Positions 122-63,613 of a stretch of 64,000 nt of DNA are shown piece by piece. The stretch is from Dehalococcoidia bacterium (GTDB taxonomy: Bacteria; Chloroflexota; Dehalococcoidia; Dehalococcoidales; W498). Position numbers and translations under genes: made by a program. The notes beneath the pieces were generated by a model. That model was not told the origin of the DNA. It saw nothing but the letters and a program-made list of their open reading frames with translations, and searched no databases. Every line of letters begins with the position of its first letter. Positions within the stretch are counted from its first letter, which is position 1. Location: NCBI GenBank assembly GCA_011170285.1, contig DUEE01000002.1:64253-128252 (forward strand), given 5' to 3'.

Positions 122-1528
<1,407 letters not shown>

Positions 1529-2386
1529 CTACTCCAGAGCCGCAGCGCCGCCAGTAATGTCAAGAAGTTCTTTAGTAATTGCCTCCTGTCTGGCTTTATT
1601 ATACATCAGGGTTAAATCTTGAATTATTTCATTAGCATTGTCAGTGGCATTTCTCATCGCCACCATTCTAGCTGACTGCTCACTGGCAATGGACTCTAAT
1701 ATGGCATGATAAACCTGTATCTCCACAAATCGTGGCAAAAGCTCACCTAACACCACATTAGGGCTTGGTTCATATATATAGTCCACATTTTGCGCTGCGG
1801 GTATTACTGCCGGCTCCACAGGAAGTATCTGCCGCAAAATTGGTCTCTGGAGCATTGTGGAAATAAATTGAGCATAGACTAAATAGACCAAATCTATAAC
1901 ACCATTAGTGTAATCATCAGTAATAATACGGGATATGGGTAAGGTATCAAGTAAGCTTGGTTGGTCACCAAGCCGGGTAAACTCAGCCCGAATATCCCGA
2001 GCATGCCGTCTCATAAAATCAATCCCCTTGCGACCAACCATAATCAGGGTAACCGGCACACTTTGCCCCAATATGAAGCTTGCTGCCTTCCGATTAATAC
2101 TAGAATGAAGCCCGCCACACAAACCGCGGTCAGGGGTGATATGCAATAAAGCGATTTTAGTCAGCGGTCGGTGCTGGAGCAAGGGATGTGACAGCCTACC
2201 TTCCTGAGGTAGAGCAGCTAGGTTGGCTATTACCTGATATATCTTCTCTGAATAAGGTCGCCCCGCCAAGCCTCGCTCCTGCGCCCGCCTCATCTTTGAG
2301 GTGGCAATCATCTCCATAGCCCTGGTAATCTTGGCTGTGCTCTGTATACTACGTATTCGGCGGCGAATTAAGCGAATATTAGCCAT
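1529..2386 (-). CDS. atpG: ATP synthase F1 gamma subunit
   Basis: 285 aa with N-terminal IRRRIRSIQSTAKITRAMEMIA and C-terminal ITKELLDI..GA, both gamma hallmarks. Lies between atpA and atpD. Confidence 0.95.
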   Translation of the reverse strand: MANIRLIRRRIRSIQSTAKITRAMEMIATSKMRRAQERGLAGRPYSEKIYQVIANLAALPQEGRLSHPLLQHRPLTKIALLHITPDRGLCGGLHSSINRKAASFILGQSVPVTLIMVGRKGIDFMRRHARDIRAEFTRLGDQPSLLDTLPISRIITDDYTNGVIDLVYLVYAQFISTMLQRPILRQILPVEPAVIPAAQNVDYIYEPSPNVVLGELLPRFVEIQVYHAILESIASEQSARMVAMRNATDNANEIIQDLTLMYNKARQEAITKELLDITGGAAALE

Positions 2387-2395
2387 TTATTAAGC

Positions 2396-3907
2396 CTAAG
2401 ATGTCATACCTTGTTTAAACTCCGTAATAGCCGTCTTTAAAGACTCGTCAATCTCAGCCGTAATCTCTTTTTCCCTAGCAATAGCCCCGCCTATCTCAGG
2501 GTGATTTGCCTCCATAAACCTATGGAAATCAGTTTCAAAGGCAGTAACTTTATCTACAGCTACATCATCAAGATAACCGTTAATAGCCGCATACAGAATC
2601 ATAACCTGTTTTTCCAATGTCACAGGGACATACTGAGGTTGCTTTAAGATTTCAGTAAGTCGCTGACCACGCTCCAACTGAGCCCTAGTTGCTTTATCCA
2701 GTTCAGTAGTGCCAAATTGAGCAAAGGCAGCTAGCTCCCGATACTGAGCCAACTCCAACCTAAGTCTACCCGCTACTTTCTTCATTGCCTTAGTTTGGGC
2801 GGCACTTCCTACCCGAGATACTGATAAACCAACATTCAATGCTGGTCTGATGCCGGTATTAAACAGGTCTGTTTCCACATAAATCTGACCATCAGTAATA
2901 GAGATAACATTAGTTGGGATATAGGCAGCTAAATCGCCAGCCTGAGTTTCAATAATAGGTAGAGCAGTGAGAGAACCACCGCCATGTTCAGGGTCATACT
3001 TAGCTGCCCTCTCAAGTAAGCGACTATGTAAATAAAAAACATCACCTGGGTAAGCTTCTCGCCCTGGCGGACGACGCAGTAATAACGAAAGTTGCCGGTA
3101 AGCCCAGGCATGCTTGGAAAGGTCATCGTAGACAATTAAAACATCCCTTCCCTCCTCCATAAACTCCTCGCCCATAGCACAACCAGCATAAGGTGCAAGA
3201 TATTGTAACGCAACCGAATCAGAAGCATCAGCAGTAACGACAATAGTATGCTCCATAGCTCCATAGGTTTCTAAACCAGCTACCACTCGTGCTACCTTGG
3301 ATGTTTTCTGCCCAATGGCAACATAGATGCAGATTAAATCACCACCCTTCTGATTGATAATAGTATCAAGAGCAATAGCTGTCTTTCCTGTTGAGCGGTC
3401 ACCAATAATAAGTTCCCTCTGTCCCCGACCTAAAGGAATCATACTATCTATAGCCTTAATCCCCGTTTGCACCGGGGTATCTACCGACTTACGCATCGTA
3501 ACATTGGGGGCAACACGTTCCATAGGTCGAGTCTTATCAGTCTTAATCGTGCCTTTACCATCTAGAGGTCTTCCCTGGGGATTAACTACCCGCCCAATAA
3601 GGGCGTCACCTACAGGCACCTCAGCAATCCGACCTGTGCTCTGCACCTCATCCCCCTCCTTAATCCCACTATAATCACCAAGGATAACGGCAGCCACTGT
3701 ATCTTCCTCCAGGTTCATGGCAATCCCCATAACCTCATTAGGAAACTGAAGTAGCTCATTATACTTAGCCCCAGCCAGTCCATGAATCCGGGCAATACCA
3801 TCACCAACCTCAATCACCGTGCCCACATCCACCATTGTTACTGCCCTACCAAACTGCTCAATCTGTTGCTTCAAGACAGAAACAATATCTTGCCCTCTTA
3901 TTGTCAT
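2396..3907 (-). CDS. atpA: ATP synthase F1 alpha subunit
   Basis: 503 aa with Walker A GDRSTGKT and alpha signature regions. Confidence 0.97.
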
Positions 3908-3929
3908 CTAAGTTACCTCCCTCCAGCTT

Positions 3930-4472
3930 CTATCTCTTACTTACCCCAGCCAACTCCTCCTTTAAAGCTGTTAATTTACTGAGAGTACTGCCGTCTAGTA
4001 GCTTGCCACCAACCCTGGCTACAATCCCGCCGATTAAGCTGGAATCTACTTTGAGCTTAAGCACTACCTTCTTACCGACTACAGCACTAAGACGCTCTGC
4101 CAATCTAATCTTATCTTCATCATCAAGGGGAATGGCAGTAGCAACCACAACCCGCTCTATACCACGGTAGCTATCCAAAAGACACTGATATTCGTCAGCA
4201 ATATCACTTACCATAGCTAGTCTACCCCTACTTACTAGCAAATAAACCAGGTTTAGCGCTAGAGGCTTTATGTCACTTAATCGTTCAGATAGCAGCCTGG
4301 TTTTAGTATCAAAATGAAACTTGGGACTCTCAAGGACAGCAATAAATACGGTATCATCAGCCAGGCTGGCAATCTTTCTCAGGTCAGACTGCCATCTATC
4401 TAATTCATTTGTCTCTAGGGCAATATTAAACACTGCCTGTGAATAACGCCTAGCATAAACTCCTCTGGTCAC
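3930..4472 (-). CDS. atpH: ATP synthase F1 delta (OSCP) subunit
   Basis: 180 aa in the position between atpF and atpA, with an OSCP-like C-terminus (GGIVARVGGKLLDGS). Confidence 0.85.
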   Translation of the reverse strand: MTRGVYARRYSQAVFNIALETNELDRWQSDLRKIASLADDTVFIAVLESPKFHFDTKTRLLSERLSDIKPLALNLVYLLVSRGRLAMVSDIADEYQCLLDSYRGIERVVVATAIPLDDEDKIRLAERLSAVVGKKVVLKLKVDSSLIGGIVARVGGKLLDGSTLSKLTALKEELAGVSKR

Positions 4473-4495
4473 GCTAACTCCCTTAATTAAGTAGG

Positions 4496-5005
4496 CTAGC
4501 CCTTCTTCGGAGGTGTGCTCTCCTCCAACACCTTGTCAATAATCTCACGGTGGGCTTCCTTATCTAAAGACCGGTCAATCACCTTCCCTGCCGCCAGTAT
4601 GGTTAGGTCAGCAAACTCCTTACGCAACTCATCAATCGCCTCATCCCGCTCTCGCTGAATTTCCATACGCGCTCTAGTGATAAGGGATTCGGTATCCTGT
4701 CTAGCTTCTTGCTCTGCCTTTTGTCTAACTTCTCCCCCTGTCCTTACTGCTCGGTCTATTACTTCTTGCCCTTCTTTACTAGCTGTCTCCAGCCGCTTTT
4801 TAACCTCCTCCTCAGCCCGGGCTGCCTGCTCCTTAATATATTCAGTCTGCTCCATACTATCCTTAACCTTCTTGGAGCGCTCATCAAGCATTCTCATCAG
4901 GGGCTTATAAGCCACCAGATACAGAAGCCCAAACAGCACAGCAAAATTTATAACCTGAGCCAGCAGTGTCGGCAGATTTATACCAAGACTAGCCAGACCT
5001 CCCAT
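4496..5005 (-). CDS. atpF: ATP synthase Fo subunit b
   Basis: 169 aa with one N-terminal TM helix followed by a long charged helix, at the expected operon position. Confidence 0.85.
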   Translation of the reverse strand: MGGLASLGINLPTLLAQVINFAVLFGLLYLVAYKPLMRMLDERSKKVKDSMEQTEYIKEQAARAEEEVKKRLETASKEGQEVIDRAVRTGGEVRQKAEQEARQDTESLITRARMEIQRERDEAIDELRKEFADLTILAAGKVIDRSLDKEAHREIIDKVLEESTPPKKG

Positions 5006-31753: not shown

Positions 31754-31975
31754 TCAGGGCAACTGTCTGCCCCTCACTAAAGTAATTCCTGTAGGAACAG
31801 GCACCCCTAATGACTGACGAGCTTCTACATGTGACTTGTTAGCATCTTTGACATTCTCCAAAACTTCCTCATAGGTTTCACCCTGCGTATAGCAACCTTG
31901 AAAAAGTGGAATAGATGCTATATTAAGCCCATCTTCATACTATCCCACTATCACCGTAAACCGATAATCGGGTAT
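31754..31975 (-). pseudogene. Decayed hicB-family antitoxin gene (no ATG/GTG/TTG start, in-frame TAG)
   Basis: Minus-strand frame reads IPDYRFTVIVG*YEDGLNIASIPLFQGCYTQGETYEEVLENVKDANKSHVEA..., a HicB/UPF0150 pattern. Confidence 0.55.
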
Positions 31976-32005
31976 GCTTAATTTAACCTCTCTTAGTAAT
32001 ATAAC

Positions 32006-32185
32006 TTATATCGAGGCAGGAAATCCATCTGCAAGAAGTATTTTAATGTAAGCTTCCGTTGCCTTCGTTATACTCTTTAAAGCTTCTTCACTGGTCTCAC
32101 TCTATGAGACACACCCCTTTAACGCAGGGACATAAGCAACATAGTCCGATTCACTATCCTACTCAGTTATCACCGTGTATGTCAC
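32006..32185 (-). pseudogene. Decayed hicB-family antitoxin gene (two in-frame TAG codons)
   Basis: A GTG start behind AGAGG gives VTYTVITE*DSESDYVAYVPALKGCVS*SETSEEALKSITKATEAYIKILLADGFPASI*. The second TAG sits where intact copies have Q (PGCVSQG). Confidence 0.6.
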
Positions 32186-42829: not shown

Positions 42830-43017
42830 GTCATTGCGATGCACTTACCCCCTCGTCATTGCGATGAGTCCTTCCCAGAAGGACGACGAAGCAATCTCAA
42901 GCAAACGATATAATCTTTTAGATTGTTTCGCTTCGCTCACAATGACATACTGAGAGATTGCTTCGCCCTTTATCCTTCAGCAAAGGGTGAAGGATGAACC
43001 GAAGGACTCACAATGAC
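42830..43017. repeat. MITE/REP-like nested palindrome, family 'A' subfamily 1
   Basis: GTCATTGCGATG...CTCGTCATTGCGATGAGTCCTTCCCAGAAGGACGACGAAGCAATCTC...GAGATTGCTTCG...GAAGGACTCACAATGAC. Nearly the same as 55779-55941. Confidence 0.75.
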
Positions 43018-47346: not shown

Positions 47347-49662
47347 TTGGAAACCGATATGGAGCTAAGAGCCCAGATTAGAGAGTATCTGCAAAATCAG
47401 GGCTATGAAATAACCGAGGGGGCTAAGCTCCCCGGGAAATCAGGTGTTGAGCATATGTTTGACATACTGGCTCAAAGAGACGATGGTTTTACCAACCACA
47501 CCGTTGCCGTCTATATTGCTGCCGGGGGTGATAGGGAAATGGAGGTAGACACTATTTTCAGCTTTGCCAACAAAGCCTATGATGCTGGCATTCATGACCG
47601 AATCCTTGTTGCCACCCCTGAACTTAGTCAGGAGGCGAAACAGTTGGCTCACAAGCAGCGGATAAAGATTATGGATGGAGAACGAATAAAGTCATTATTA
47701 GATTTAGAGCCTGCGCCACCGGTTAAACCAAAGGAGCCCCTTAAGTTTGAAACAAACGAGCAATTAGTGATATCTTTAGCCAATCTGGGCTATAGAGTTG
47801 AGGAGAAAGCCAGAGTTCGAGGCCGGTCAGGAGTTGAATATACCTTTGATATATTGGCTTATATTGACATTGACCAGGTTAGTCACGGGCTAGGTATAGA
47901 TTTCCTGAACGGGGAGAAGGAAGTGAGTCTGGAGCAGATATCATTATTTGATACTAAAGCCTACGATGCCGGCATTGATGATAAAATCATTGTGGTATCA
48001 GCAGGGCTTAGCCCTGAAGCGCGGCAATTTGCCCAGCTACAGCAGATAAAAGTCCTTGAGGCAAACAAAAAAAACCCTTCTCAACCCACGGTGACTGAAG
48101 AAAAACCTGCCCCACCCAAGGAGAACCCGGCTAAGTTAGACGAGTTAGTAGCCCCAGCGGCTAAGTCTATGGTCAAATCTTTGAGGCATGCACCTCAGAC
48201 TGAAACATTGCAATTGATTCCTGAAGTGATGGCGCGAAGATATAATGCCATACCCTTGACTATATCTGATAACACATTAGAGGTGGCTATGGCAGACCCA
48301 ACCGACATCTTTGCCCTGGAGGCTTTCTCTGCCCTGAGCCAGATGATGATTAAGCCTATAGCCGCCAGTGCCAAGGCAGTCAGGGAGGCTATTGACTTTA
48401 ATTATAAAGGCTATGGCGCAATTGAACAGCAGCTTTCTCGTATCTCTACCCCCAGTGACGCAGTTGAAGACAGATTTGACATCAGGGTTGATACTGATGC
48501 CCCTCTGGCTCAGGCTCTTACCCTTATTATTGAAGAGGCAATCAAAGCCCGCTCATCTGACATTCACATTGAGCCTGAAGAGGATAGGTTGAGGATACGC
48601 TATCGTATTGATGGCACTCTTCAGGATATGATGTCTCTGCCTATGACCATACATCCGGCTCTCATTTCTCGAATCAAAATCCTGTCCGATATGAATATTG
48701 CTGACCGTCATCGTCCACAAGATGGTCAGTTTTCTACCGAGGTAAAAGGGCGACAGATAGATGTGCGAGTAGCTACTGCTCCCATTGTTAATGGTGAGAT
48801 GGCCGATTTGCGACTTCTGGACAAGTCAATGGCTACTCTAGGATTATCCGAACTTGGTATGTTACCTTATAGCCTGGAAAAGTATGAGAATGTACTCAAG
48901 ATTCCCTATGGCATGATTCTGATTAGCGGTCCTACCGGAGCCGGTAAGACCACTACCCTATATGCTTCAATCAATTCCCTTGACTGCCTGGGGAGAAACA
49001 TAATTACCATTGAAGACCCGGCAGAGTATCGGTTTAAGGATATCAATCAGATTCAGGTCAATCCTCAAGCTGGCATTACCTTCGCTACTGGCTTGAGGTC
49101 TATACTTCGTCTTGACCCCGATGTAATAATGGTCGGTGAGATACGCGATACCGAAACAGCTAACATATCGGTTCAGGCAGCCTTAACCGGGCATCTGATG
49201 TTATCCTCGGTCCATGCCAACGATGCGGCTGGTGTGCTATCCCGTCTCCTTGACCTGGACATAGAGCCTTTTCTAGTCGCGTCAGCAGTTATTGGTGTTG
49301 TCGCTCAGCGGATGGTGCGCCGCATTTGCCCTGATTGCAGCCGTCCTATAGAAGCGCCGTCAATAGAGAGGATGGCTTATGAAAGAGAAATCGGGGAGAA
49401 ACGGACTGAATTCCTGTATGGCACCGGTTGTCAGTCATGTGCTTATACCGGTTATCTGGGTCGAACGGGAATCTTTGAAATTCTAACTATGAGTGATACT
49501 ATAAGAACAATGCTTCCCAGCCAACCCAGTAGTAGCCAGATTCGTACTCAGGCACTTAAAGAAGGGATGGTAACGATTATGAACGATGGTATGCGTAAGG
49601 TAAAGGCTGATATCACTACCCCGTCTGAAGTGCTGCGTAATGCCTACTCTGGTGACTACTAA
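47347..49662 (+). CDS. pilB: Type IV pilus assembly ATPase (GspE/PilB family) with a novel duplicated N-terminal module
   Basis: 771 aa with T2SSE_N (LQLIPEVMARRYNAIPL..), Walker A GPTGAGKT, DPDVIMVGEIRD, GHLMLSSVHAN and the tetracysteine CPDC..CQSC. Residues 7-240 are two copies of an unassigned module. Confidence 0.9.
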   Translation: METDMELRAQIREYLQNQGYEITEGAKLPGKSGVEHMFDILAQRDDGFTNHTVAVYIAAGGDREMEVDTIFSFANKAYDAGIHDRILVATPELSQEAKQLAHKQRIKIMDGERIKSLLDLEPAPPVKPKEPLKFETNEQLVISLANLGYRVEEKARVRGRSGVEYTFDILAYIDIDQVSHGLGIDFLNGEKEVSLEQISLFDTKAYDAGIDDKIIVVSAGLSPEARQFAQLQQIKVLEANKKNPSQPTVTEEKPAPPKENPAKLDELVAPAAKSMVKSLRHAPQTETLQLIPEVMARRYNAIPLTISDNTLEVAMADPTDIFALEAFSALSQMMIKPIAASAKAVREAIDFNYKGYGAIEQQLSRISTPSDAVEDRFDIRVDTDAPLAQALTLIIEEAIKARSSDIHIEPEEDRLRIRYRIDGTLQDMMSLPMTIHPALISRIKILSDMNIADRHRPQDGQFSTEVKGRQIDVRVATAPIVNGEMADLRLLDKSMATLGLSELGMLPYSLEKYENVLKIPYGMILISGPTGAGKTTTLYASINSLDCLGRNIITIEDPAEYRFKDINQIQVNPQAGITFATGLRSILRLDPDVIMVGEIRDTETANISVQAALTGHLMLSSVHANDAAGVLSRLLDLDIEPFLVASAVIGVVAQRMVRRICPDCSRPIEAPSIERMAYEREIGEKRTEFLYGTGCQSCAYTGYLGRTGIFEILTMSDTIRTMLPSQPSSSQIRTQALKEGMVTIMNDGMRKVKADITTPSEVLRNAYSGDY

Positions 49663-51906: not shown

Positions 51907-54312
51907 ATGAAAAAAATGTCATTGGAAAAAATAATCAAAAACGAGACGGGACAGGTGATGATTATGGTCCTGATTCTGCTGGTGGTAGGCAGTCTTATCA
52001 TTACCCCGCTCCTGGCTTATGTGAGCACCGGGCTTAATGTTGGACGAGAAGTCTATGAAGAAAAGATGGATAGTTTTTATGCCGCTGACTCTGGGGTTGA
52101 GGACGCCTTATGGCAAATAAAGTATGACAAGCTAACCGAGTTATTCGAATATGATACTCCCGCGTATGACCCGTATGCCTATTATGAATACAGCTCTTCA
52201 AACCAATGGGATTATTACCTATCCGAGCCGATAAATGGCGATAGCGTAAATGTTACCATAGGAAATAGCTGGATTCCTCAGATAACACCAATCCCAGATG
52301 AGGACGAGGCGAGGCTAATTATTGAGGGTATCGACAACGAGCCTCCCAAGCTGATAATAGTTGGTAGTGTCTCAGGGACTTCAGAATATCAAATCAAGAT
52401 ATACTATTACAAAGAGGATACAGATGACCCTTTGGAAGTAGAATCGCTAGGCATATGGCTACCACCCGGCTTCAACTATGATGTAGATGGACAGGAAGAG
52501 GATGACTTTGAGGCTTACCTAGAGGCCAATTTCCCAGGGGATTATTCTAGGAAAATCACCACTCACAATGGTGGTGAAGCTGTAGTCTGGACTTTCAGTC
52601 CCGCTGTTCTCTTTACTGACTTACCAGAGGTTAACCCACAGGACCAGCCAATGGAGAGCATTATCACCTTCCAATTTACTGGTCCATTGGGGCAGAGTCC
52701 CGGAGCCGTTTCCTGGATAGATACCAACTTGGACTTAAGTGGCGGTGCCGATATTACCTATACCTGGGATGCCGATATTAAAGTCTATAAGATTACCTCC
52801 ACGGCTACTGATACTACTACCGATAAGCAAACTATTGTTGAAGCTTATACTGCCAAATGTGAGCTGCGGAAACTGGGCTCAGCCATAGGCGGAGAATACC
52901 GGGCTGCAGGCGCTACCTTAATGATAGACGAGAATCCTTGGCATAAGCCGCCGATAAGAGATACCTTGCTTGGTGCGAGCAGTGTCGAGGTTGACGATAT
53001 CCCGGTTGATGCCGAAGTGGAAAAAGCTTATCTTTACTGGTCAGCCTGGCTAGCGGATACTGGCGAGGAAATACTATTCTGGGACTATTGTACAGACCTT
53101 GATAACGGGAATTGGGATTACGGTAGTGATTGGCACGAATCTGGGTCTTCTACTGCGTTTTACGCGCATCATGATGGTGGTGGCAGAGAACTTAAAATGG
53201 AAAATACGCTGGATTTACACGCTTACGAACCTGAAACGGTTACCGCTTCCTGGCGAAATTGGACATACCGTAGCTGGCCGCAAGGAAGTGATGATTGTCT
53301 TCAATATGGCTTCTATGATAACGGTAGCAGCAGTTGGGACTGGTATAGTGACCTTGGGATCTGCGGAAACATTGGTACGTCTCCAGTAAATTACACTGTT
53401 ACTGTTCCTGATACGTATTTGACCAGTACCTTTAAGATAGGGTTTAGGATACAAAGCTACAGTGATGATAACGAGTATATCTACATAGATAATGTCAAAA
53501 TCTCTGTGCAGACAGGGACGATAGCCGATACCTCAGCTATTTTTAAGATAGATGGTGACCAGGTTTACTTTGATGAAGGTGGTGTTCCCACTAAAGGTGC
53601 TGAGGAGATAACCGCTTCTGAATGGTCACTCCTGGAGAATGAACCTGGTGAGTATTCCTATTCTTGCTATCTGGATGTAACCCAATTGGTCAGGACATTT
53701 TCTGACGAGGGCGATAACGGTAATTACCCCGGTAATGCTACCTACATCGTTGGTGGCGTAGATGGGGACACGGGTAACGAATGGTCCTACGCTGCTTGGT
53801 CGCTGATAATCATCTACTCCAGCCCTGAGACGCACGGGCACCAGCTCTATCTGTATGATGACTTTATCTACTCTGGTATGAACTGCAATGTTGATTTTGA
53901 TGGCGATGGCGAAGAAGGGGGCACGATTAGTGGCTTCTTGGTTCCAGAGCCTATTAGGGACCCTGATACCGGTGAAATCATCGAAGAGAACGCGGCTAAA
54001 CTGACCTGCTTTGTCGGCGAGGGGGATGATTACTATAACGATGATTATCTCAAATTTAATGGGACTCGTCTCTCTGATGGTAAAACCAAATGGGATGTGT
54101 GGAACTCGTGGTCTCTGGGGATGAGCGAGGATGGCATAGATATTGATACCTTTTATGTTACCTGGGCGAGTGACCTATTGAAGCCAGAGGATACATCAGC
54201 TCAGGTGGACTTACCTACGGAGACTGACTCCTGGAACTTAGTCTATATCATCCTCTCCTTCCGCAGTGCGACCACCACCGGTGGCACTATGACCTACCTG
54301 GTGAGGGGATAA
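51907..54312 (+). CDS. Large PilX/TadG-like pilus-associated protein (putative tip or adhesin)
   Basis: ATG 51907 (behind AGGGAG) gives about 801 aa. The N-terminus ETGQVMIMVLILLVVGSLIITPLLAY is a PilX_N-like hydrophobic helix without the GFTLxE signal. The remainder is acidic and Trp/Tyr/Asp-rich. Confidence 0.6.
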   Translation: MKKMSLEKIIKNETGQVMIMVLILLVVGSLIITPLLAYVSTGLNVGREVYEEKMDSFYAADSGVEDALWQIKYDKLTELFEYDTPAYDPYAYYEYSSSNQWDYYLSEPINGDSVNVTIGNSWIPQITPIPDEDEARLIIEGIDNEPPKLIIVGSVSGTSEYQIKIYYYKEDTDDPLEVESLGIWLPPGFNYDVDGQEEDDFEAYLEANFPGDYSRKITTHNGGEAVVWTFSPAVLFTDLPEVNPQDQPMESIITFQFTGPLGQSPGAVSWIDTNLDLSGGADITYTWDADIKVYKITSTATDTTTDKQTIVEAYTAKCELRKLGSAIGGEYRAAGATLMIDENPWHKPPIRDTLLGASSVEVDDIPVDAEVEKAYLYWSAWLADTGEEILFWDYCTDLDNGNWDYGSDWHESGSSTAFYAHHDGGGRELKMENTLDLHAYEPETVTASWRNWTYRSWPQGSDDCLQYGFYDNGSSSWDWYSDLGICGNIGTSPVNYTVTVPDTYLTSTFKIGFRIQSYSDDNEYIYIDNVKISVQTGTIADTSAIFKIDGDQVYFDEGGVPTKGAEEITASEWSLLENEPGEYSYSCYLDVTQLVRTFSDEGDNGNYPGNATYIVGGVDGDTGNEWSYAAWSLIIIYSSPETHGHQLYLYDDFIYSGMNCNVDFDGDGEEGGTISGFLVPEPIRDPDTGEIIEENAAKLTCFVGEGDDYYNDDYLKFNGTRLSDGKTKWDVWNSWSLGMSEDGIDIDTFYVTWASDLLKPEDTSAQVDLPTETDSWNLVYIILSFRSATTTGGTMTYLVRG

Positions 54313-54340
54313 AGGCTTTGTTTATCAATTTAATGTAGCA

Positions 54341-54520
54341 AGGAAAATTTAAAAGTTAAAAGATTAAAAGTTAAAAATAAAAATGAATAAATTTAAAGAC
54401 TTGACCGTTGATGAATTGGAGTATTTAATAGGTAGAAAATGTAAAAGTTGAAAATAAAAATGGGGGAAGATAAAAGATTAAGGGTTAAAATGTAAAAATG
54501 GATAAAAGGGAAAGTAGGAA
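54341..54520 (+). repeat. AT-rich repeat leader copy 1 (TTAAAAG-type short tandem units plus GGAAATGTAAAAGTTAAAAATAAAAATG plus AAAGACTTGACCGTTGATGAATTGGAGTATTTAATAG)
   Basis: Shares blocks with 55031-55163, 55674-55736 and 61543-61612. Ends in TAGGAAATG, whose ATG is the hicB start. Confidence 0.75.
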
Positions 54521-54736
54521 ATGAAGCATATTACCATTACTGCTGAATTGATAAAAGAGGAAGAAGGAGGCTATACCGTTTACTGCCCGGAACTGGATGT
54601 TTATACTCAGGGAGATGACATAGAAGACGCTATCAAAAACCTTAAAGAGGCTGCCGAACTCCACATAGAGGAGTTAGGAATAGAGAACATCAAGCTGAAA
54701 GAAATACAGCGGAGACAGATAGAAATGGTAGTTTAA
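54521..54736 (+). CDS. hicB: HicB-family antitoxin (pair 1)
   Basis: 71 aa with EEEGGYTVYCPELDVYTQGDDIEDAIKNLKEAAELHIE (UPF0150 pattern). Confidence 0.85.
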   Translation: MKHITITAELIKEEEGGYTVYCPELDVYTQGDDIEDAIKNLKEAAELHIEELGIENIKLKEIQRRQIEMVV

Positions 54737-54737
54737 C

Positions 54738-54974
54738 ATGCCTAGACTGCCGAGGATAACAGGAAAGGAATTAGTGAAGGCATTGCAAAAGGAAGGTTTT
54801 GAAATTACACGGCAAAAGGGAAGCCATGTGCAGATGACAAAGTATATTGTTGGTGATAAATTAACCTTTCCTGTTCCCGTTCATGCTGGCAAAATCGTTA
54901 AACAAGGGACTTTAAAGGGGATACTGAGAAAGGCAAACATTCCTGTGGAGCGACTGGATAGACTCCTTAAATGA
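54738..54974 (+). CDS. hicA: HicA-family mRNA interferase toxin (pair 1)
   Basis: 78 aa with ITGKELVKALQKEGFEITRQKGSHVQM. Confidence 0.88.
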   Translation: MPRLPRITGKELVKALQKEGFEITRQKGSHVQMTKYIVGDKLTFPVPVHAGKIVKQGTLKGILRKANIPVERLDRLLK

Positions 54975-55030
54975 TGGGAGATTAACTAGCAATAGGAATA
55001 GTAGATTAGGTTAAGTAAAATAGCCAGGCT

Positions 55031-55163
55031 AGGAAATGTAAAAGCTAAAAATAAAAATGAAAAAATTAGAGTGTTTAATAGAGTAGGAAATGTATAGGAA
55101 ATGTAAAAGTTAAAAATTTATAGACTTAACCATTGATGAATTGGAGTATTTAATAGATAGGAA
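55031..55163 (+). repeat. AT-rich repeat leader copy 2
   Basis: AGGAAATGTAAAAGCTAAAAATAAAAATG...AGGAAATGTAAAAGTTAAAAAT..TAGACTTAACCATTGATGAATTGGAGTATTTAATAGATAGGAAATG (hicB start). Confidence 0.75.
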
Positions 55164-55409
55164 ATGAAGACTTATGTTTTTAGAGTAGTGCTTGAACCTG
55201 ATGAAGGTCGCTGGTTTGCTTATTGCCCAGTCCTTGAAGAAAAGGGTGGAGCTACCTGGGGATATACCAGAGAAGAGGCCTTAAGGAATATAAGGGAGGT
55301 GATTGAAATGACAATCGAAGGCCTCATCGAGCGCGGGGAACCAATCCCTGAGCAACCAGAAATGGAAGTAAGGATTTCCCCTGAGCCCCTGGTGGTTGTT
55401 AATGTATGA
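55164..55409 (+). CDS. hicB: HicB-family antitoxin (pair 2)
   Basis: 81 aa with FRVVLEPDEGRWFAYCPVL...YTREEALRNIREVIEMTIEGL. Confidence 0.85.
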   Translation: MKTYVFRVVLEPDEGRWFAYCPVLEEKGGATWGYTREEALRNIREVIEMTIEGLIERGEPIPEQPEMEVRISPEPLVVVNV

Positions 55410-55663
55410 ATGGACTCGATTACTCCAGGCTCCGTTCTATAACTGCCAGGGAGATAATATCAGCTTTAATTAAAGATGGCTTTTACTTCGAACGACAGTC
55501 AGGTAGTCATCAACAATACTATCACCAGGATGGTAGGAGGGTGACGGTTTCTTTTCACCATCCAGGTGACACCTTCACTCCAAAGATTTTGAAGAGCATG
55601 ATTGAAAAGCAGTCCAAGTGGACATACGAAGACCTTAAGAGGTTGAAACTAATAGAACTTTAA
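55406..55663 (+). CDS. hicA: HicA-family toxin (pair 2)
   Basis: 85 aa with ITAREIISALIKDGFYFERQSGSHQQYYH. ATGA overlap with hicB. Confidence 0.85.
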   Translation: MNGLDYSRLRSITAREIISALIKDGFYFERQSGSHQQYYHQDGRRVTVSFHHPGDTFTPKILKSMIEKQSKWTYEDLKRLKLIEL

Positions 55664-55673
55664 GATGAAATGC

Positions 55674-55736
55674 GGGAAATGTAAAGGTTAAAAATAAAAA
55701 TGACAAAAGTTAAAGACTTAACCATTGATGAGTTGG
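55674..55736 (+). repeat. AT-rich repeat copy 3 (no gene attached)
   Basis: GGGAAATGTAAAGGTTAAAAATAAAAATGACAAAAGTTAAAGACTTAACCATTGATGAGTTGG. Confidence 0.7.
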
Positions 55737-55778
55737 GAATAAAGTTTAAGTTGGGAGCAAGCCCGATTAGTTCTTTGT

Positions 55779-55941
55779 GTAATTGCGAAGCACTAACCCT
55801 CTCGTCATTGCGAGGAGTTCTTCCCAGAAGGACGACGAGGCAATCTCGGAGGGGAGGAAACGGAGTGAGATTACAATGAGATTGCTTCGTCCTTTATCCT
55901 TCACCAAAGGGTGAAGGATGAACCGAAGGACTTGCAATGAC
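55779..55941. repeat. MITE/REP-like nested palindrome, family 'A' subfamily 1 (second copy)
   Basis: Near-identical blocks to 42830-43017 (CTCGTCATTGCGAGGAGTTCTTCCCAGAAGGACGACGAGGCAATCTC ... GAGATTGCTTCGTCCTTTATCCTTCACCAAAGGGTGAAGGATGAACCGAAGGACTTGCAATGAC). Confidence 0.75.
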
Positions 55942-55994
55942 ATTCCTTCTATTGAGAAGGAGCTTTGGAAAACCTTTATGGATGGAGTTAAATA

Positions 55995-56582
55995 ATGAGG
56001 ATAAGTAAAACAGCTAAATTAATTCTGGGTATTGGCGTTTTTATCATCGCCGTGGGCGTGCTGGGTTGGGTCTATCTTGAACAGAGGGGTGAGCAGCAGC
56101 GGCTAGATAATAGCCTATCGTTGGCTCAATCTACCCTGCCTACCGTTACTTCACAAAGGGAGGGTCTGGAAAGCCGACTGACCGAAGTGGATACCAAACT
56201 AGCTGAAGCTGAATTATTGCTTGATGGGACAAAGGCAAGTTTCCCTGAATCGGTGGAGAGCATTGAATACGATGAGACAATATTTGACATTGCTGATGAT
56301 TGTAACCTAAAGATAATCAATCTCACTGCGTCAGAGCCACGCGACAAAGAGGATGAGGATATTACCTACTACATTACCTCGTTTGAAGTAGAAGTGGAGG
56401 GCACGGTGGCTCATATCCTTAATTTCATAGAAACCATAGCTACCAGCGACTTCTCACCCGGTGAAACTAGCTTCGTCAACGCCTATATTGAGGCAGTGAG
56501 TATGTCAATTCCTGAACCTGGAGAAGACGAGCAACCGTCAGCTAATATCAGTCTGGCTATATATGGCTATCGAGGTGAATAA
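55995..56582 (+). CDS. pilO: PilO-like pilus assembly protein
   Basis: 195 aa with an N-terminal TM, a coiled coil and a C-terminal alpha/beta domain, adjacent to pilMN. Assigned from architecture only. Confidence 0.6.
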   Translation: MRISKTAKLILGIGVFIIAVGVLGWVYLEQRGEQQRLDNSLSLAQSTLPTVTSQREGLESRLTEVDTKLAEAELLLDGTKASFPESVESIEYDETIFDIADDCNLKIINLTASEPRDKEDEDITYYITSFEVEVEGTVAHILNFIETIATSDFSPGETSFVNAYIEAVSMSIPEPGEDEQPSANISLAIYGYRGE

Positions 56583-59127: not shown

Positions 59128-59190
59128 GCTATCAGCTAATGGCTATTAGCTATCTGCTGACTGATGACTGCCGACTGCTAAAAGCTAATA
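59128..59190 (+). repeat. Heptanucleotide tract T1 (9 x GCTNNNN/GNNGACT)
   Basis: gctatca gctaatg gctatta gctatct gctgact gatgact gccgact gctaaaa gctaata. Begins at the nucleotide after the pilT stop. Confidence 0.85.
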
Positions 59191-59365
59191 TTCAGCGAAG
59201 GGGAAGGGTCTCTGAGATTCTTCGTCCTTCTACCGAAGGACTCAGAATGACAAAAACGGGCGGCACCCACCCTCTCGTCATTGCGAGCGAAGCGAAGCAA
59301 TCTCAATTAAAAAGGAAACCCTGAGATTGCCACGTCCTTCTAACGAAGGACTCGCAATGACATTC
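59166..59365 (+). repeat. Direct repeat, left copy (200 bp; contains a family 'A' subfamily 2 nested palindrome)
   Basis: About 95% identical to 60494-720 apart from a ~27-nt indel. Includes GTCATTGCGAG...GCAATCTC-N18-GAGATTGC...CTCGCAATGAC. ORF 59139-59324 is only its translation. Confidence 0.85.
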
Positions 59366-59374
59366 CGGTGAACG

Positions 59375-59486
59375 CTGACTGTTGATAGCTGACCGCTGAC
59401 TATTGACTAATGACTAATCACTATTGACTAATGACTATTGATTGCTGAAAGCTATTAGCTATAAGCTATTTGCTGGCTGCTTAGAT
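59375..59486 (+). repeat. Heptanucleotide tract T2 (16 degenerate units, consensus NTGACTA)
   Basis: ctgactg ttgatag ctgaccg ctgacta ttgacta atgacta atcacta ttgacta atgacta ttgattg ctgaaag ctattag ctataag ctatttg ctggctg cttagat. Confidence 0.85.
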
Positions 59487-59579
59487 ATAGCAAAGCCCAG
59501 TGGCGAGGTAGAAGTAAAACCAACTCCCTTATACTCTCCTTTACAATTTAATCACTCCCAGATATACTACCAGTGGAAA

Positions 59580-59807
59580 ATGGGAAGGAAACTTAGAGGC
59601 ATAAGTGGGCAAGAAGCTATCGAAGCTTTTAAGAAATTTGGCTATAGCCAGAGGAAGGGTAAAGGAAGCCATGTAAATCTGGTTAAGCCTGGAAGCAATA
59701 GGCTGACTATACCGCTCCATACTGAATTAAGCGTGGGGTTATTAGCCAATGAAATAAAAAAGGCTGGTTTAACCGTGGAAGAATTTCAAGAGCTTCTAGG
59801 GAGGTGA
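59580..59807 (+). CDS. hicA: HicA-family toxin (pair 3)
   Basis: From M47 of the track ORF: MGRKLRGISGQEAIEAFKKFGYSQRKGKGSHVNLVKPG... The upstream part of the track ORF is a translated heptamer tract. Confidence 0.85.
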   Translation: MGRKLRGISGQEAIEAFKKFGYSQRKGKGSHVNLVKPGSNRLTIPLHTELSVGLLANEIKKAGLTVEEFQELLGR

Positions 59808-59810
59808 CAA

Positions 59811-60035
59811 ATGGAGGCTATGGAATATACAGTGATTTTGCACTGGGATGAAGAATATAACGGTTACTGGATAGAAGTACCGGCATTACCTGGCTGTGTC
59901 TCCCAGGGTAAAAGCAAAGAGGAGGCGTTAGCTAATATCAAAGAAGCTATTGAACTACACCTTGAGTGTTTGGAAGAAGACGGCGAGGTCATACCCAAGG
60001 AAGAATCTTACCGAATAGCTGTAGCTGCCAAATAA
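59811..60035 (+). CDS. hicB: HicB-family antitoxin (pair 3)
   Basis: 74 aa with YTVILHWDEEYNGYWIEVPALPGCVSQGKSKEEALANIKEAIELHLE. Confidence 0.88.
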   Translation: MEAMEYTVILHWDEEYNGYWIEVPALPGCVSQGKSKEEALANIKEAIELHLECLEEDGEVIPKEESYRIAVAAK

Positions 60036-60121: not shown

Positions 60122-60481
60122 GTGAAAGATTTCAAAGAACTGGAAGTATGGGTTAAGGCTCATCAGTTGACTCTGGCGGTCTATGAGGCTACCCAGACGT
60201 TCCCCCGTTATGAATTTTATGGACTGACAAGTCAAATCAGGCGTTCATGTGCTTCCATACCAGCCAATATTGCGGAAGGTTGCGGCCGAAGTGGAGATGC
60301 CGAGCTGGCTCGCTTCCTCCAGATTGCGATGGGTTCGGCAAGCGAGCTTGAATATCACATTCTGCTGGCTCGTGACCTCAGCTTACTCAACAGCCTAGCC
60401 TATGACCACCTGGCTAGTGATGTGACCGTGGTAAAACGCATGCTGGCGTCATTTATCAAGAAGCTGAAAGCTGACTACTGA
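60122..60481 (+). CDS. Four-helix-bundle protein (23S rRNA IVS protein / Avd-like family)
   Basis: 119 aa. FKELEVWVKAHQLTLAVYEATQTFPRYEFYGLTSQIRRSCASIPANIAEGCGR matches the family pattern (TIGR02436-like). GTG start. Confidence 0.85.
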   Translation: MKDFKELEVWVKAHQLTLAVYEATQTFPRYEFYGLTSQIRRSCASIPANIAEGCGRSGDAELARFLQIAMGSASELEYHILLARDLSLLNSLAYDHLASDVTVVKRMLASFIKKLKADY

Positions 60482-60518: not shown

Positions 60519-60720
60519 TTCAGCGAAGGGGAAGCGTCTCTGAGATTCTTCGTCCTTCTACCGAAGGACTCAGAATGACAAAAATGGGCGGCACTCACCC
60601 TCTCGTCATTGCGATGAGCCGAAGCCCTGAGCGTAGCGAAGGGAAAGCGAAGCAATCTCAATTAAAAAGGAAACCATGAGATTGCCACGTCCTTCTAACG
60701 AAGGACTCGCAATGACATTC
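60494..60720 (+). repeat. Direct repeat, right copy (227 bp)
   Basis: Collinear with 59166-59365 and carries an extra GAGCCGAAGCCCTGAGCGTAGCGAAGGGAA-like insert. Confidence 0.85.
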
Positions 60721-60951: not shown

Positions 60952-61332
60952 TTAGGCTTTGGCGCCTTGAGTTGTCACGCCATCAATCAAAATAGTATAT
61001 GTGTATTCAGTCGGGTTTAGTAGGTACTTTTGCGGGTCATTAACAGCAGTAACACCAGTAGGGTCTAGCTGCGCGGCGGTATAAGTCACTATAACCGGAC
61101 TCATACCGGCAGCTGTCCCCTCAACCATTGCCGCCGTTACTGCTACCAGCACATTAGCCAGTTCCGTCTCAGCCGCCTCTGATTCACCACTGCCAATAAA
61201 CCGGGCGACGGCAGGGATGGCTACTGCTGCCAGGACACCCAGAATAGCTACTACCACCAGCAGCTCAATCAGTGTGAAACCCTTCTCACCATAACGAAAC
61301 GATTTCTTGAACTTACTTATAAACCTCCTCAT
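60952..61332 (-). CDS. pilA: Major type IV pilin candidate (prepilin-type N-terminal domain)
   Basis: 126 aa with leader ...RYGEKG/FTLIELLVVVAILGVLAAVAIP. Strong SD (AAGGAAGGAGG). Small size and a dedicated terminator suggest the major subunit. Confidence 0.82.
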   Translation of the reverse strand: MRRFISKFKKSFRYGEKGFTLIELLVVVAILGVLAAVAIPAVARFIGSGESEAAETELANVLVAVTAAMVEGTAAGMSPVIVTYTAAQLDPTGVTAVNDPQKYLLNPTEYTYTILIDGVTTQGAKA

Positions 61333-61542
61333 TTTTTTCGCCTCCTTCCTTCGTTATTTAAAAGTATTTCCAGTAACTTATTGTATTGTATAGCTCACTT
61401 TCTCTATATTATATTTCCCCCTTTCCTTGTTATTTTAATTTACTTTAGGCAAAGTATAGTTAGTTAAGTTTATGATATAACCTATACCTATTCTAAGTCA
61501 ATAGTCCATTAGTAATAGGTATATTGGTGCCAAACGTCCACA

Positions 61543-61612
61543 GGAAAGATTAAAAGTTAAAGACCAAGAACAAAAATAAAGGATTAAAAACTAAAAATAA
61601 AAATGTAAAATC
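61543..61612 (+). repeat. AT-rich repeat copy 4
   Basis: GGAAAGATTAAAAGTTAAAGACC...CTAAAAATAAAAATGTAAAATC. It has the same (+) polarity as copies 1-3, although the adjacent hicAB pair is on the minus strand. Confidence 0.6.
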
Positions 61613-61684
61613 TGAAGTAAATTTTAACATTTAGCTTTTGATATTTAATTTACCAAGCGGTTGGCTCCAGCATAATAAACCATC

Positions 61685-61909
61685 TTACCCTTTCACCAAC
61701 TGAATAAATTCATCAATACTTATATCAGCGGTGCGAAGTATGGCTCGCATAGTGCCCCTATCTAGCTTATTATGTTTGGGAACGGTGACTGGCCTCCTCC
61801 CGGGACATCTCATCCTGACATGACTTCCCCTGGTTCGAGCTACCCTGTAGCCAATTCGCTCAAGGGCTGAGATGCATTGGTCGCCCGAAACAATCGGTAG
61901 CTCTGGCAT
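61685..61909 (-). CDS. hicA: HicA-family toxin (pair 4)
   Basis: 74 aa with VSGDQCISALERIGYRVARTRGSHVRM. TGATG overlap with hicB. Confidence 0.85.
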   Translation of the reverse strand: MPELPIVSGDQCISALERIGYRVARTRGSHVRMRCPGRRPVTVPKHNKLDRGTMRAILRTADISIDEFIQLVKG

Positions 61910-62139
61910 CAGGTGCCAATCTCAACCTGATCAAGAACATATTCCATGGGTAGAGTCCAGCCTTCCTCTTCCATACTTTCCAGGCAGAGCTCAGCAGCTT
62001 CTTTAATGTTGACTAGAGCCTCCTCTTTAGTCCTCCCCTGTGAAATGCAGCCGGGGACTACTGGTATCTCGGCTACAAAATAACCATCTTCCCCCACTGT
62101 GATAACAACAGGCAGCTTCATTTCTCTTACCTCCCCCAT
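61909..62139 (-). CDS. hicB: HicB-family antitoxin (pair 4)
   Basis: 76 aa with VVITVGEDGYFVAEIPVVPGCISQGRTKEEALVNIKEAAELCLE. Confidence 0.85.
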   Translation of the reverse strand: MGEVREMKLPVVITVGEDGYFVAEIPVVPGCISQGRTKEEALVNIKEAAELCLESMEEEGWTLPMEYVLDQVEIGT

Positions 62140-62245: not shown

Positions 62246-63613
62246 TTAGCTAGATGGCTCCAGATCGTTAACCTCAAAGACCTTGATTTTCTGCCTCTGG
62301 GCAAACTGGCGGGCTTCCTGGGTAAGCCCGGGAACGGCAATAAAGACCTTAGCTAGAATACCTATATCATAAGCCTTATCATCAAAATCAAATACCTTCT
62401 CTAATCCCACCGCCTCCTCAGCTAGCTCAATGCCGACAACAACACGATGAGTAATGATGGCGTCATCCCTGGTAGCCAGTATGTCTATACTGTGTTCTGC
62501 CCCTGACCTGCCTGTAACCTCAGTATTTTCCTCTATTTCGTAGTCTTGCTGCTTTAAGTATTCTATAAACTGTGACTTGGAGTTAAATTCAAAGGGCTCT
62601 CTTTTTACCCCCTCGCTGGGCTTGGGGACACCGCCAGCCAGCACCGTCTCCAAATCCTTAACTCCAAGTACATTTATTCTCTGCAGACTGGCATATTTCT
62701 CCGCCTCTTTGCCTAAAGCGGGGGCAACAACCAGAATTTTATCGTGAATACCTATATCATAGGCTATATCATCAAAGTTAAATATCTCTCCCAGCCCTAT
62801 CTCATCTCCAGCCACCTTAATCCCAATAGCGATATTACAAGTAATAACACCATCATCCCTGGTAGCCAGTATATCTATACTGTGTTTTGCCCCTGACCTG
62901 CCTTTAACCTCTGCATTTTCCTTTACTTCATAGCCGCGCTTTTTCAAAAATTCTATGAGTTGTGATTTGGGCTTAAGTTCAAATTCCAGCCAGCCTCTCT
63001 TTGCCTCATTGAAACGATAAGAATAGACATTTACCTCACTAACACCATCCTCAGCGGTAAGCGACGAGCATTTCAGGCAGCGCCATTTTATTATGGGTAT
63101 GTTGAATACCTCATCGCAATCGCGGCACTTGCGCAGCATCCCCAGGCTACGGTAGTCACTGCCAATAGTCCGTAGCTCCTGCCCACACTTGGGGCATATA
63201 TACCTACCTTTGTGGATAAACTCGGCTTCAAGCCCAACATATTTACAGACAAAGTGCTCAAATACCCTGCCCCGGGGAATATTCCCTGAGCCACACTTAG
63301 GACAACGGGTAGAGGGTCTCAAAACTACCGACAGACACTGGGGACAGTGAATGAACTTATCAAAGAACTCCCTTTTCACTATACCCTTATCAGCCAGTAA
63401 TTCTAAAGTTGATACCACTTCCCCTCCCTTAACGGCTAATACTTGCTCAACTGCTGGATAGATGAAGCCCAGTTCACTGGTGAAATCAAGCTCCGGTCTA
63501 ATATCAACAATCCTCCCCGCTAGCATTTCTGCCCCCAGTCTCATTGCCTTTTCATTCTGCTCAATTTGTGTGGCTGGGGTAGTATTATTTACAGGCTCAT
63601 TTACTTCAGCCAA
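62246..63613 (-). CDS. Multi-zinc-ribbon protein with two C-terminal copies of the PilB N-terminal module
   Basis: 455 aa. Residues ~30-85 are a possible winged-helix region. Residues 90-182 carry five CxxC pairs (C90/93, C104/107, C140/143, C163/166, C179/182). Residues 216-322 and 346-452 are the module GY/DYE[VI].EN.EV.GRSGA.HSIDILATRDD...AYDIGI..K[IV]...P.L..EA..[YF]A..Q.I.V. Confidence 0.7.
   Translation of the reverse strand: MAEVNEPVNNTTPATQIEQNEKAMRLGAEMLAGRIVDIRPELDFTSELGFIYPAVEQVLAVKGGEVVSTLELLADKGIVKREFFDKFIHCPQCLSVVLRPSTRCPKCGSGNIPRGRVFEHFVCKYVGLEAEFIHKGRYICPKCGQELRTIGSDYRSLGMLRKCRDCDEVFNIPIIKWRCLKCSSLTAEDGVSEVNVYSYRFNEAKRGWLEFELKPKSQLIEFLKKRGYEVKENAEVKGRSGAKHSIDILATRDDGVITCNIAIGIKVAGDEIGLGEIFNFDDIAYDIGIHDKILVVAPALGKEAEKYASLQRINVLGVKDLETVLAGGVPKPSEGVKREPFEFNSKSQFIEYLKQQDYEIEENTEVTGRSGAEHSIDILATRDDAIITHRVVVGIELAEEAVGLEKVFDFDDKAYDIGILAKVFIAVPGLTQEARQFAQRQKIKVFEVNDLEPSS

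Follow-up and report, generated by a model that had tools for sequence, protein, structure and literature searches.

The 64-kb window analysed here (64,000 nucleotides (nt) of contig DUEE01000002.1, assembly GCA_011170285.1, from a Dehalococcoidia bacterium) contains a type IV pilus operon that houses an array of toxin-antitoxin (TA) cassettes: two hicB-hicA pairs, interspersed with copies of an AT-rich repeat that an earlier note on this DNA had taken for a leader of the pairs. The operon encodes PilB, PilC, two N_methyl pseudopilins, a large protein without family assignment and then, beyond the TA array, a PilO-like protein, PilM(N) (family PilM_2) and PilT. The variable slot occupied by the array measures 1.68 kb, from the stop codon of the large gene at 54312 to the start of pilO at 55995. 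It lies between the tip gene and pilO, as the earlier note had proposed, with its right end at the pilO start (55995) rather than at 55760; past 55760 come a palindromic repeat element (55782-55946) and what is left of the 3' end of a further HicB-like gene (55942-55992). The labels 'tip protein', for the large protein, and 'pilO' are names drawn from context: the Pfam search gave no match for either the tip protein or the 195-amino-acid (aa) PilO-like protein, and PF04350, which we take to be the PilO family, was found in one of the 121 PilO-like homologues, at 44% identity to the 195-aa protein. Orthologues of the tip gene are present in the relatives L019, L022, L026, and L034 (relatives are cited by locus number). 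The slot and its borders hold the following features, in which g62 denotes the parent gene of the repeat and hicB78 an orphan HicB-like gene of relatives, both described below.

51907..54312, + strand: 'tip' protein gene, a large pilus-operon gene (open reading frame; 801 aa with the gene-caller start equivalent to 51907), left slot boundary
54313..54342, + strand: short post-tip spacer (95% identity over 21 nt with L019, L034, and L036)
54343..54451, + strand: leader unit 1a, with decayed upstream block, AAAAGTT mini-tandem, and g62 5' remnant (module map, tblastn, alignment A2)
54435..54520, + strand: leader unit 1b, with a second upstream block (54435-54462) and then a pre-hicB1 segment ending TAGGAAATG
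54521..54736, + strand: hicB1, short HicB-like antitoxin, 71 aa, without DNA-binding domain (Pfam HicB_lk_antitox, PF15919, 26.9 bits, cutoff 27)
54738..54974, + strand: hicA1, HicA toxin, 78 aa, KGSH motif (Pfam HicA_toxin, 68.8 bits, 4.2e-19)
55005..55031, + strand: decayed remnant of a pilO 5' end within leader 2 (alignment to L026)
55032..55094, + strand: leader unit 2a, upstream block and a g62 5' remnant that lacks about 24 nt internally (alignment A2)
55095..55163, + strand: leader unit 2b, upstream block joined onto g62 nt 6-50, start codon lost (alignment A2)
55164..55409, + strand: hicB2, short HicB-like antitoxin, 81 aa, without DNA-binding domain (Pfam HicB_lk_antitox, 26.3 bits, cutoff 27)
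55406..55663, + strand: hicA2, HicA toxin, 85 aa, SGSH motif (Pfam HicA_toxin, 59.8 bits, 2.8e-16)
55675..55736, + strand: leader unit 3, upstream block and g62 nt 1-37, truncated at GATGAGTTGG
55739..55781, + strand: 'tailX', fused here to the g62 remnant; in relatives it follows a truncated hicB1 (nt about 162-165)
55782..55946, + strand: dispersed palindromic repeat element, similar to repetitive extragenic palindromes or miniature inverted-repeat transposable elements (fold z = -5.2; also in L026 and L025)
55942..55995, + strand: hicB78 3' remnant, 18 final codons of the orphan HicB-like gene (78% identical to residues 61-78 by tblastn)
55995..56582, + strand: pilO-like gene, 195 aa (open reading frame; 121 homologues), right slot boundary

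HicA is an mRNA-interferase-type toxin and HicB its antitoxin. Two complete hicB-hicA pairs stand in tandem (54521-54974 and 55164-55663), an observation of the earlier note that held for all four open reading frames, and the pairs are clearly diverged, as it also stated: HicA1 and HicA2 share 36% and HicB1 and HicB2 35% amino-acid identity, with a nucleotide identity of about 52%. Both HicA proteins score far above the gathering threshold of PF07927 (cutoff 27 bits), and their KGSH and SGSH motifs (G-x-H, with the catalytic histidine) align with KGGH of PDB 1WHZ. The HicB proteins fall just below the PF15919 cutoff (26.9 and 26.3 against 27 bits) and resemble the N-terminal HicA-binding, partial RNase-H-like domain, an assignment supported by the position of both genes beside hicA; structural matches were to PDB 2yzt (TTHA1756; E 1.3e-4) and HicB 6g1c (E 7e-3) for HicB1, and to HicB 6g1c (E 8e-4) for HicB2. 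These matches span only the N-terminal domain, and no DNA-binding domain was found in either protein (71 and 81 aa); membership of the wider HicB family still fits, since HicB proteins without a DNA-binding domain are common according to a recent review (PMC11594946). The genes hicB1 and hicA1 are 1 nt apart and the hicB2 stop overlaps the hicA2 start in ATGA, and each pair is translationally coupled. With no DNA-binding domain in HicB and no evident promoter, transcription of the pairs most likely comes by read-through from the pilus operon. Among relatives, HicB1 has orthologue fragments that are 93-95% identical in L019, L034, and L026, HicB2 is 95% identical in L019 and L034, and HicA2 is 89-91% identical in the same two.

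Two further hic pairs flank pilus genes at 59442-60035 (+) and 61685-62139 (-), one in hicA-hicB order and the other in hicB-hicA order on the minus strand, giving four hic pairs in total within about 8 kb, and a 23S_rRNA_IVP family gene (60122-60481, +) lies between these two. Between a minus-strand prepilin gene (60952-61332) and hicA (61685-61909) runs a stretch of about 400 nt (61300-61700; GC 0.27-0.29) that is as AT-rich as the leaders and has no match to them. Farther away, at 31772-32155 (-) between tRNA genes of a tRNA cluster, two weak tblastn HicB-like matches (35-40%, E 3e-5 to 4e-4) may be small unlisted HicB/UPF0150-like open reading frames.

The sequences upstream of the two pairs share the long identical blocks previously reported, the longest exact matches being 24, 18, and 17 nt, and leaders 1 and 2 are 85% identical over a stretch of 62 nt. 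In the 64-kb window each quoted block occurs three times at 3 or fewer mismatches, against 0.00 expected in shuffled sequence, all within the array region, and the GC content of the leaders is 0.24-0.33 against 0.449 for the window. The third, gene-less copy was likewise recovered (55675-55736). The repetition is real, and the number of copies required revision: alignment A2 resolves five partial copies instead of three, all in register with intact g62 genes, leaders 1 and 2 holding two units each and the third leader one. A unit comprises about 28 nt from the g62 upstream region followed by a g62 5' fragment drawn from the initial 37-50 nt of the gene, and the start-to-start spacings of 77 and 51 nt correspond to tandem units of about 77 nt, one with a 24-nt deletion. 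Tandem Repeats Finder (TRF) detected 7-nt and 11-nt mini-repeats only, missing the units of about 77 nt because they are too diverged.

The units differ in what they retain. Unit 1a preserves g62 nt 11-49 at 54393-54431 (92% identical; tblastn places g62 residues 1-20 at 54383-54442), with an ATG at 54383 that opens a residual reading frame of 22 codons (MNKFKDLTVDELEYLIGRKCKS, then stop) and a mini-tandem at 54344-54376 (TRF), and the pre-hicB1 segment of unit 1b is also found in L026. In leader 2, positions 55005-55065 align to L026 1305-1365 (77%, E 9e-8), which comprises the pilO 5' remnant and upstream block of that relative; the 11-nt TAGGAAATGTA is present twice at 55084-55105; and unit 2b carries g62 nt 6-50 at 55113-55157 (93% identical), running straight into the hicB2 start TAGGAAATG. 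Unit 3 is 100% identical to the intact L020 gene over g62 nt 1-37 and lies where L019 and L036 have their second, intact copy of g62, and the adjoining tailX is 100% identical in L026 and L025 and 94% in L019 and L034. No parE remnant or additional g62 fragment was found by tblastn in the 64-kb window, and the leader is absent from its two other hic loci. The upstream blocks at 54435, 55032, 55097, and 55675 provide four copies with AGGAAATGTAA or GAAAATGTAA, a ribosome-binding-like site with ATG and an immediate TAA; AATGTAAA is retained in L026 and L025, and this 'start-stop' mini-open reading frame may be a chance by-product of homology to g62 nt 51-65.

When metagenome contigs were scanned with the block GACTTRACCRTTGATGARTTGG, five loci were identified, and in three of them (L017, L019, and L020) the block opens an intact gene of 62-64 aa, g62, beginning MTKVKDLTIDELEYLIEQKILEVLGDPDSGLEL and encoding MTKVKDLTIDELEYLIEQKILEVLGDPDSGLELREEFKEELKxRLENPSRRISHQEVVNRVG. 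The other two loci, L016 and L018, had no leader similarity outside the 22-nt pattern itself and were set aside, and the sequence upstream of g62 in L017 matched none of the compared sequences. In L020, g62 overlaps a ParE_toxin/RelE_StbE gene by 8 nt, and the same arrangement of a small antitoxin gene overlapping a downstream ParE/RelE gene is found in L038-L043 and L047-L049. The best hidden Markov model match of g62 was TIGR02574 ('putative addiction module component'; 23.5 bits, E 4e-5, below the cutoff of 31.9), with no significant match in Pfam or PDB. The g62 family comprises 296 clusters and is well conserved, about as much as PilT, and source names, where given, are Dehalococcoidia or Chloroflexota. 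The leader block had 0 matches in the species-representative genomes, the source genome not being among those scanned, and neither g62 nor the leader matched viral contigs, phage records, or plasmid records. The suggestion that the repeat is cassette-associated was borne out by its presence in other genomes and contexts (L017, L019, L020, L033, and L037-L049). Its description as a leader of hicBA was mistaken, since it corresponds to the upstream region and 5' end of g62, whose partner is a ParE/RelE toxin. Judged by these alignments, the leader is a gene remnant, a pseudogene scar, and not a regulatory or recombination element.

Orthologous operons were obtained from a PilMN search of species-representative genomes, from the contigs of PilO homologues, and from those of g62 homologues. 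The view that the hicBA pairs are insertions was upheld by operons whose slot is empty: the gap that separates the tip stop from the pilO start is 4 nt for L022, 15 nt for L031, 20 nt for L023, and 43 nt for L028. The post-tip spacer is common to occupied-site relatives and is missing from the empty sites of L022, L028, and L031. Occupied slots vary widely in content. The order is tip, g62, parE, pilO in L047-L049, and pilO 5' remnant, g62, parE, hicB78, pilO in L020 and L033. In L034, the tip gene is followed by g62, truncated hicB1, the repeat element, a hicB78 remnant, a pilO 5' remnant, hicBA2, intact hicB78, and pilO, hicBA2 being preceded here by a sequence other than the leader; L019 and L036, of the same species-level population, have instead a second g62 copy after hicA2. 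L026 and L025 hold truncated g62, pieces of the repeat element, and truncated hicB1. The window is the most eroded version, with every g62 copy truncated and both hicBA1 and hicBA2 intact. What follows the post-hicA2 leader differs accordingly: intact g62 in L019 and L036, hicB78 in L034, and g62 nt 1-37 with tailX in the window. Nearly identical strains thus differ in cassette content; contigs with identical PilO all have the same arrangement and represent one population, and are therefore uninformative on variation. A candidate hicA2 3' remnant at L021 118-160 (TTTAAGATGAAATGC, the sequence right after hicA2 in the window) was a 15-nt exact match only and was not relied on; PilMN identity is 60% in L021, and its contig begins 259 nt upstream of pilO.

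Intact hicB78 lies immediately before pilO in L020 (1916-2152) and L034 (1788-2024) and encodes a HicB/UPF0150-like protein of 78 aa with no hicA partner. Its stop overlaps the pilO start (TAATG) in relatives, an overlap kept in the window remnant, which suggests that pilO is translationally coupled to hicB78. The palindromic repeat element, with a core like CGTCATTGCGAGG...GCAATCTC...GAGATTGC and a length of about 100-165 nt, has other copies in the window at 42833-43017, 59269-59366, and 60591-60720, and occurs also in L019, L025, L026, L038, L041, L044, and L047. It recurs beside or inside pilus-operon TA cassettes, has cut short hicB1 and hicB78 in relatives, and creates spurious open reading frames such as 59139-59324 (+) and 59178-59306 (-), reading '...LRFARNDE...'.

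The junctions of the g62 fragments carry short homologies. The fragment before hicB2 ends ...TTTAATAGA and runs into TAGGAAATG, where intact g62 continues ...TTTAATAGAGCAGAAAATC, and the third copy ends GATGAGTTGG followed by GAATAAAGTTTAAGTTGGGAGC, a tail that follows hicB1 at GAGGAGTT(A/G)GG in L019 and L026. At the hicB starts, AGGAAATG is paired with AGAAAATC, and at the third copy GATGAGTTGG with GAGGAGTTRGG; the end points of the deletion after hicA2 fall in similar stretches of ribosome-binding site plus ATG. No inverted repeat or attC-like structure was found within the leaders, leader 2 folds no better than shuffled sequences (z = +1.1), Rfam gave no match in the region at gathering or permissive thresholds, and promoter-like sites are not enriched (7 against 4.4 expected), with none on the + strand inside the leader. 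The sole terminator-like site (55749-55768) is weak, and no integrase or recombinase gene lies within about 10 kb on either side, where the neighbours are pilus, TA, 23S_rRNA_IVP, and Mrr-domain genes. In view of these negative results, we read the copies as recombination scars left by duplications, deletions, and replacements, and the short-homology junctions, together with the cassette differences among near-identical strains, point to local duplication and short-homology recombination. For the copies within the locus, the spacing of about 77 nt, the shared truncation near nt 50, and the junction microhomology speak against the earlier inference that simple local duplication was not involved.

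We consider it likely that the array consists of decaying TA cassettes and that the leader is the remains of a third, destroyed cassette. The slot would be a lineage-specific insertion hotspot in the pilus operon with a scrambled array of type II TA cassettes. Its first occupant would have been g62 with its ParE/RelE toxin gene, followed by the orphan HicB-like gene overlapping the pilO start. In the window lineage the g62-parE cassette would then have been destroyed, parE being lost and g62 left as fragments, which unequal and short-homology recombination would have multiplied and joined to new neighbours, the slot now being filled by two intact hicBA modules. This reading is built on what was observed: the fragments have been identified, relatives have empty and intermediate sites, the junctions carry homologies, and near-identical strains vary; from these observations we infer the order of events and a RecA- or microhomology-driven mechanism with no dedicated recombinase. 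Nucleotide identity between the window and L034 is 93.9% for hicBA2 and 91.2% for hicB1, against 71.6% for the 3' end of the tip gene and 82.1% from pilO to pilT, and this higher identity of cassettes than of flanks would fit recent cassette exchange between lineages.

Several points weigh against this reading. Stronger constraint could partly explain why the cassettes are more similar than their flanks, and the toxin and antitoxin activities of the Hic proteins are predicted from sequence. Because the upstream block is AT-rich and low in complexity, the case for its homology to the G-rich region upstream of intact g62 rests on position and on the L026 intermediate, and not on a strong score. 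The order of events has no unique reconstruction, the exact arrangement of the window is restricted to one population, and no direct precursor was seen. Finally, the search for leader copies covered the 64-kb window and public collections, and further copies may exist elsewhere in the source genome.

The contexts of g62 in relatives raise a different account of the repeats. Each of the seven g62 contexts that could be read is a type IV pilus operon (four of them, P0232, P0183, P0210, and P0160, were picked solely for length); g62 sits in the gap separating tip from pilO, or has pseudopilin genes on one side and a tip-like gene on the other, or is flanked by two tip-like genes. In the more distant lineages, what precedes g62 duplicates the promoter-like region of pilO and its 5' end. 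The 90 nt ahead of g62 in L047 agree at 68 of 90 positions with the 90 nt that run up to and into pilO, a repeat that spans a TAGACA-N17-TATATT promoter-like motif, a ribosome-binding site, and the first 30 nt or so of pilO; the cassette-flanking pilO 5' repeats of L020 are identical at 46 of 54 positions. In L038, g62 is again preceded by this pilO-like leader although pilO itself is more than 4 kb away, so that the cassette has its own paralogue of pilO's promoter-like region and 5' end. These data, together with a similarity of cassettes between lineages above that of their flanks, would be consistent with a homology-targeted mobile cassette that uses the pilO promoter-like region and the first 30-38 nt or so of the gene as entry homology into pilus operons, either as an excised circle that undergoes Campbell-type recombination or, following DNA uptake, by homology-facilitated illegitimate recombination, the window leaders then being worn left ends of targeted insertions and not plain local duplications. 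We regard this as doubtful, if conceivable. The pilO repeats are diverged (76-86%), as would fit vertical inheritance of a single old insertion; neither a circular form nor a population variant missing a single cassette was seen; and the window lineage lacks the promoter-like part, the TAGACA-N17-TATATT motif being absent and only the decayed pilO 5' piece at 55005-55031 being kept. Since g62 is about as conserved as PilT, its conservation alone is no proof of transfer.

Other explanations take the leader as a functional element. As a cis-regulatory element of hicBA kept by selection (a promoter, an operator, or a 5' untranslated region device like the AGGAAATGTAA mini-open reading frame), it would account for the identical start context TAGGAAATGAAG at both hicB genes and for the several upstream blocks with ribosome-binding site, ATG, and TAA in series, and HicB proteins without a DNA-binding domain would need some other control. 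This is nonetheless improbable, because its conserved core belongs to another gene, as the 5' coding end of g62, without enriched sigma-70-like sites (none of them on the + strand inside the leader), predicted structure, or Rfam match, and because the leader is missing at the two other hic loci of the window and before hicBA2 of L034, and its third copy has no attached gene. If the leader were the attachment site of a site-specific cassette system, whether integron-like or dependent on an integrase gene located elsewhere, this would explain why the repeats outnumber the cassettes by one and flank each of them, and why the cassettes seem promoterless, as in integron arrays. We hold this to be very improbable given the lack of an imperfect inverted repeat or hairpin and of any integrase or attI within about 10 kb on either side, the identity of the repeat as a gene fragment, and junctions that differ among copies (g62 nt 37, about 49-51, and an internal deletion) with no fixed crossover. 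Tandem duplication of an ancestral leader-plus-hicBA unit, whose proteins diverged while the leaders stayed similar, would agree with the tandem gene order and the identical hicB start contexts, yet it is scarcely credible when identity is 35-36% for the proteins and about 52% for the coding DNA but 85-93% in the leader blocks. L034 and L019 contain a separate orthologue of each pair, 91-95% identical, so that the two pairs were distinct before the lineages split, and hicBA2 of L034 has a different upstream sequence.

Set beside known systems, the hicBA pairs fall within HicAB as ordinary members, in a variant that is antitoxin-first and without a DNA-binding domain. They share with that system the HicA_toxin domain with its G-x-H motif, a HicB like the N-terminal HicA-neutralising domain, and adjacent, translationally coupled genes. 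The Haemophilus pilus gene cluster is a chaperone-usher system. According to PMC11594946, the typical gene order is the reverse of the hicB-hicA order found here, and hicAB first came to notice as an insertion within the pilus gene cluster of Haemophilus. This parallel is a curiosity and no evidence of a shared mechanism, the pilus of the window being an unrelated Chloroflexota type IV pilus. The destroyed cassette resembles ParE/RelE systems with a TIGR02574-like antitoxin, as g62 overlaps the ParE_toxin/RelE_StbE gene by 8 nt in relatives and has TIGR02574 as its best match; it differs in a score below the family cutoff and in the survival of 5' fragments only, the toxin gene being absent from the window.

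The closest formal analogue of the slot is provided by the Dehalococcoides ssrA islands, which are described in PMC3146451 as tandem multi-kb islands, each bounded by a 20-bp repeat that copies the 3' end of ssrA. In both cases cassettes stand in tandem with strain-variable content and syntenic flanks, and in relatives of the window the target gene and a direct repeat of its end flank the cassette: such a repeat at the far insert boundary was found in L020 and L047, the window having only the decayed remnant at 55005-55031. However, the repeat here is the pilO 5' end, in some lineages with the promoter-like region, the units are TA cassettes of 0.5-0.8 kb, and no integrase or recombinase module was found in any cassette or neighbourhood read. 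Integron gene-cassette arrays often carry TA cassettes. The array resembles them in its small, same-orientation, seemingly promoterless cassettes inside a transcription unit with repeats between them, but it has no attC hairpin, integrase, or attI, and its repeat is a pseudogene fragment; an integron cassette array was rejected on both the attC evidence (no leader inverted repeat, z = +1.1) and the integrase and attI evidence. The array works like other TA hotspots.

Pilus operons may be general TA hotspots in Dehalococcoidia. In more distant members of the class, arrays of unrelated TA pairs lie between pseudopilin and tip-like genes in L037-L040 (about 900-4500) and L047 (about 480-2350), comprising a 67-aa gene with ParE, RHH with PemK, AF2212-like with PemK, and UPF0150. 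The PilB-type ATPase of the window (47347-49662, +) has an N-terminal Mrr_cat/NA-iREase1 restriction-endonuclease-like domain before MshEN and T2SSE, a fusion that also occurs in relatives, and at the far end of the pilus region a gene at 62246-63613 (-) encodes a TackOD1 and Mrr_cat protein.

As a more tentative extension, g62-parE could be specialised for pilus operons across Dehalococcoidia, its copy of pilO's promoter-like region, ribosome-binding site, and opening 10 codons or so linking it to pilus-operon expression and also supplying homology for recombinase-free insertion, excision, and re-insertion beside pilus genes, and thereby seeding a slot in which more TA cassettes, hicBA among them, would accumulate and displace one another. 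No link between type IV pilus operons and TA modules was reported, by title or abstract, in the papers listed by full-text literature searches, one of which covered Dehalococcoidia by name. The window array is itself an ordinary but well-documented hotspot, and a pilus-operon-specific cassette family is moderately novel. The result for the window removes a false lead, the locus showing TA cassettes that replace one another inside an operon. If upheld in a systematic survey, the association of g62-parE with pilus operons would provide a rare chromosomal TA family tied to one cellular machine, and with it a route to asking whether TA modules stabilise or regulate their host operon or merely exploit it, and how cassettes without a recombinase move.

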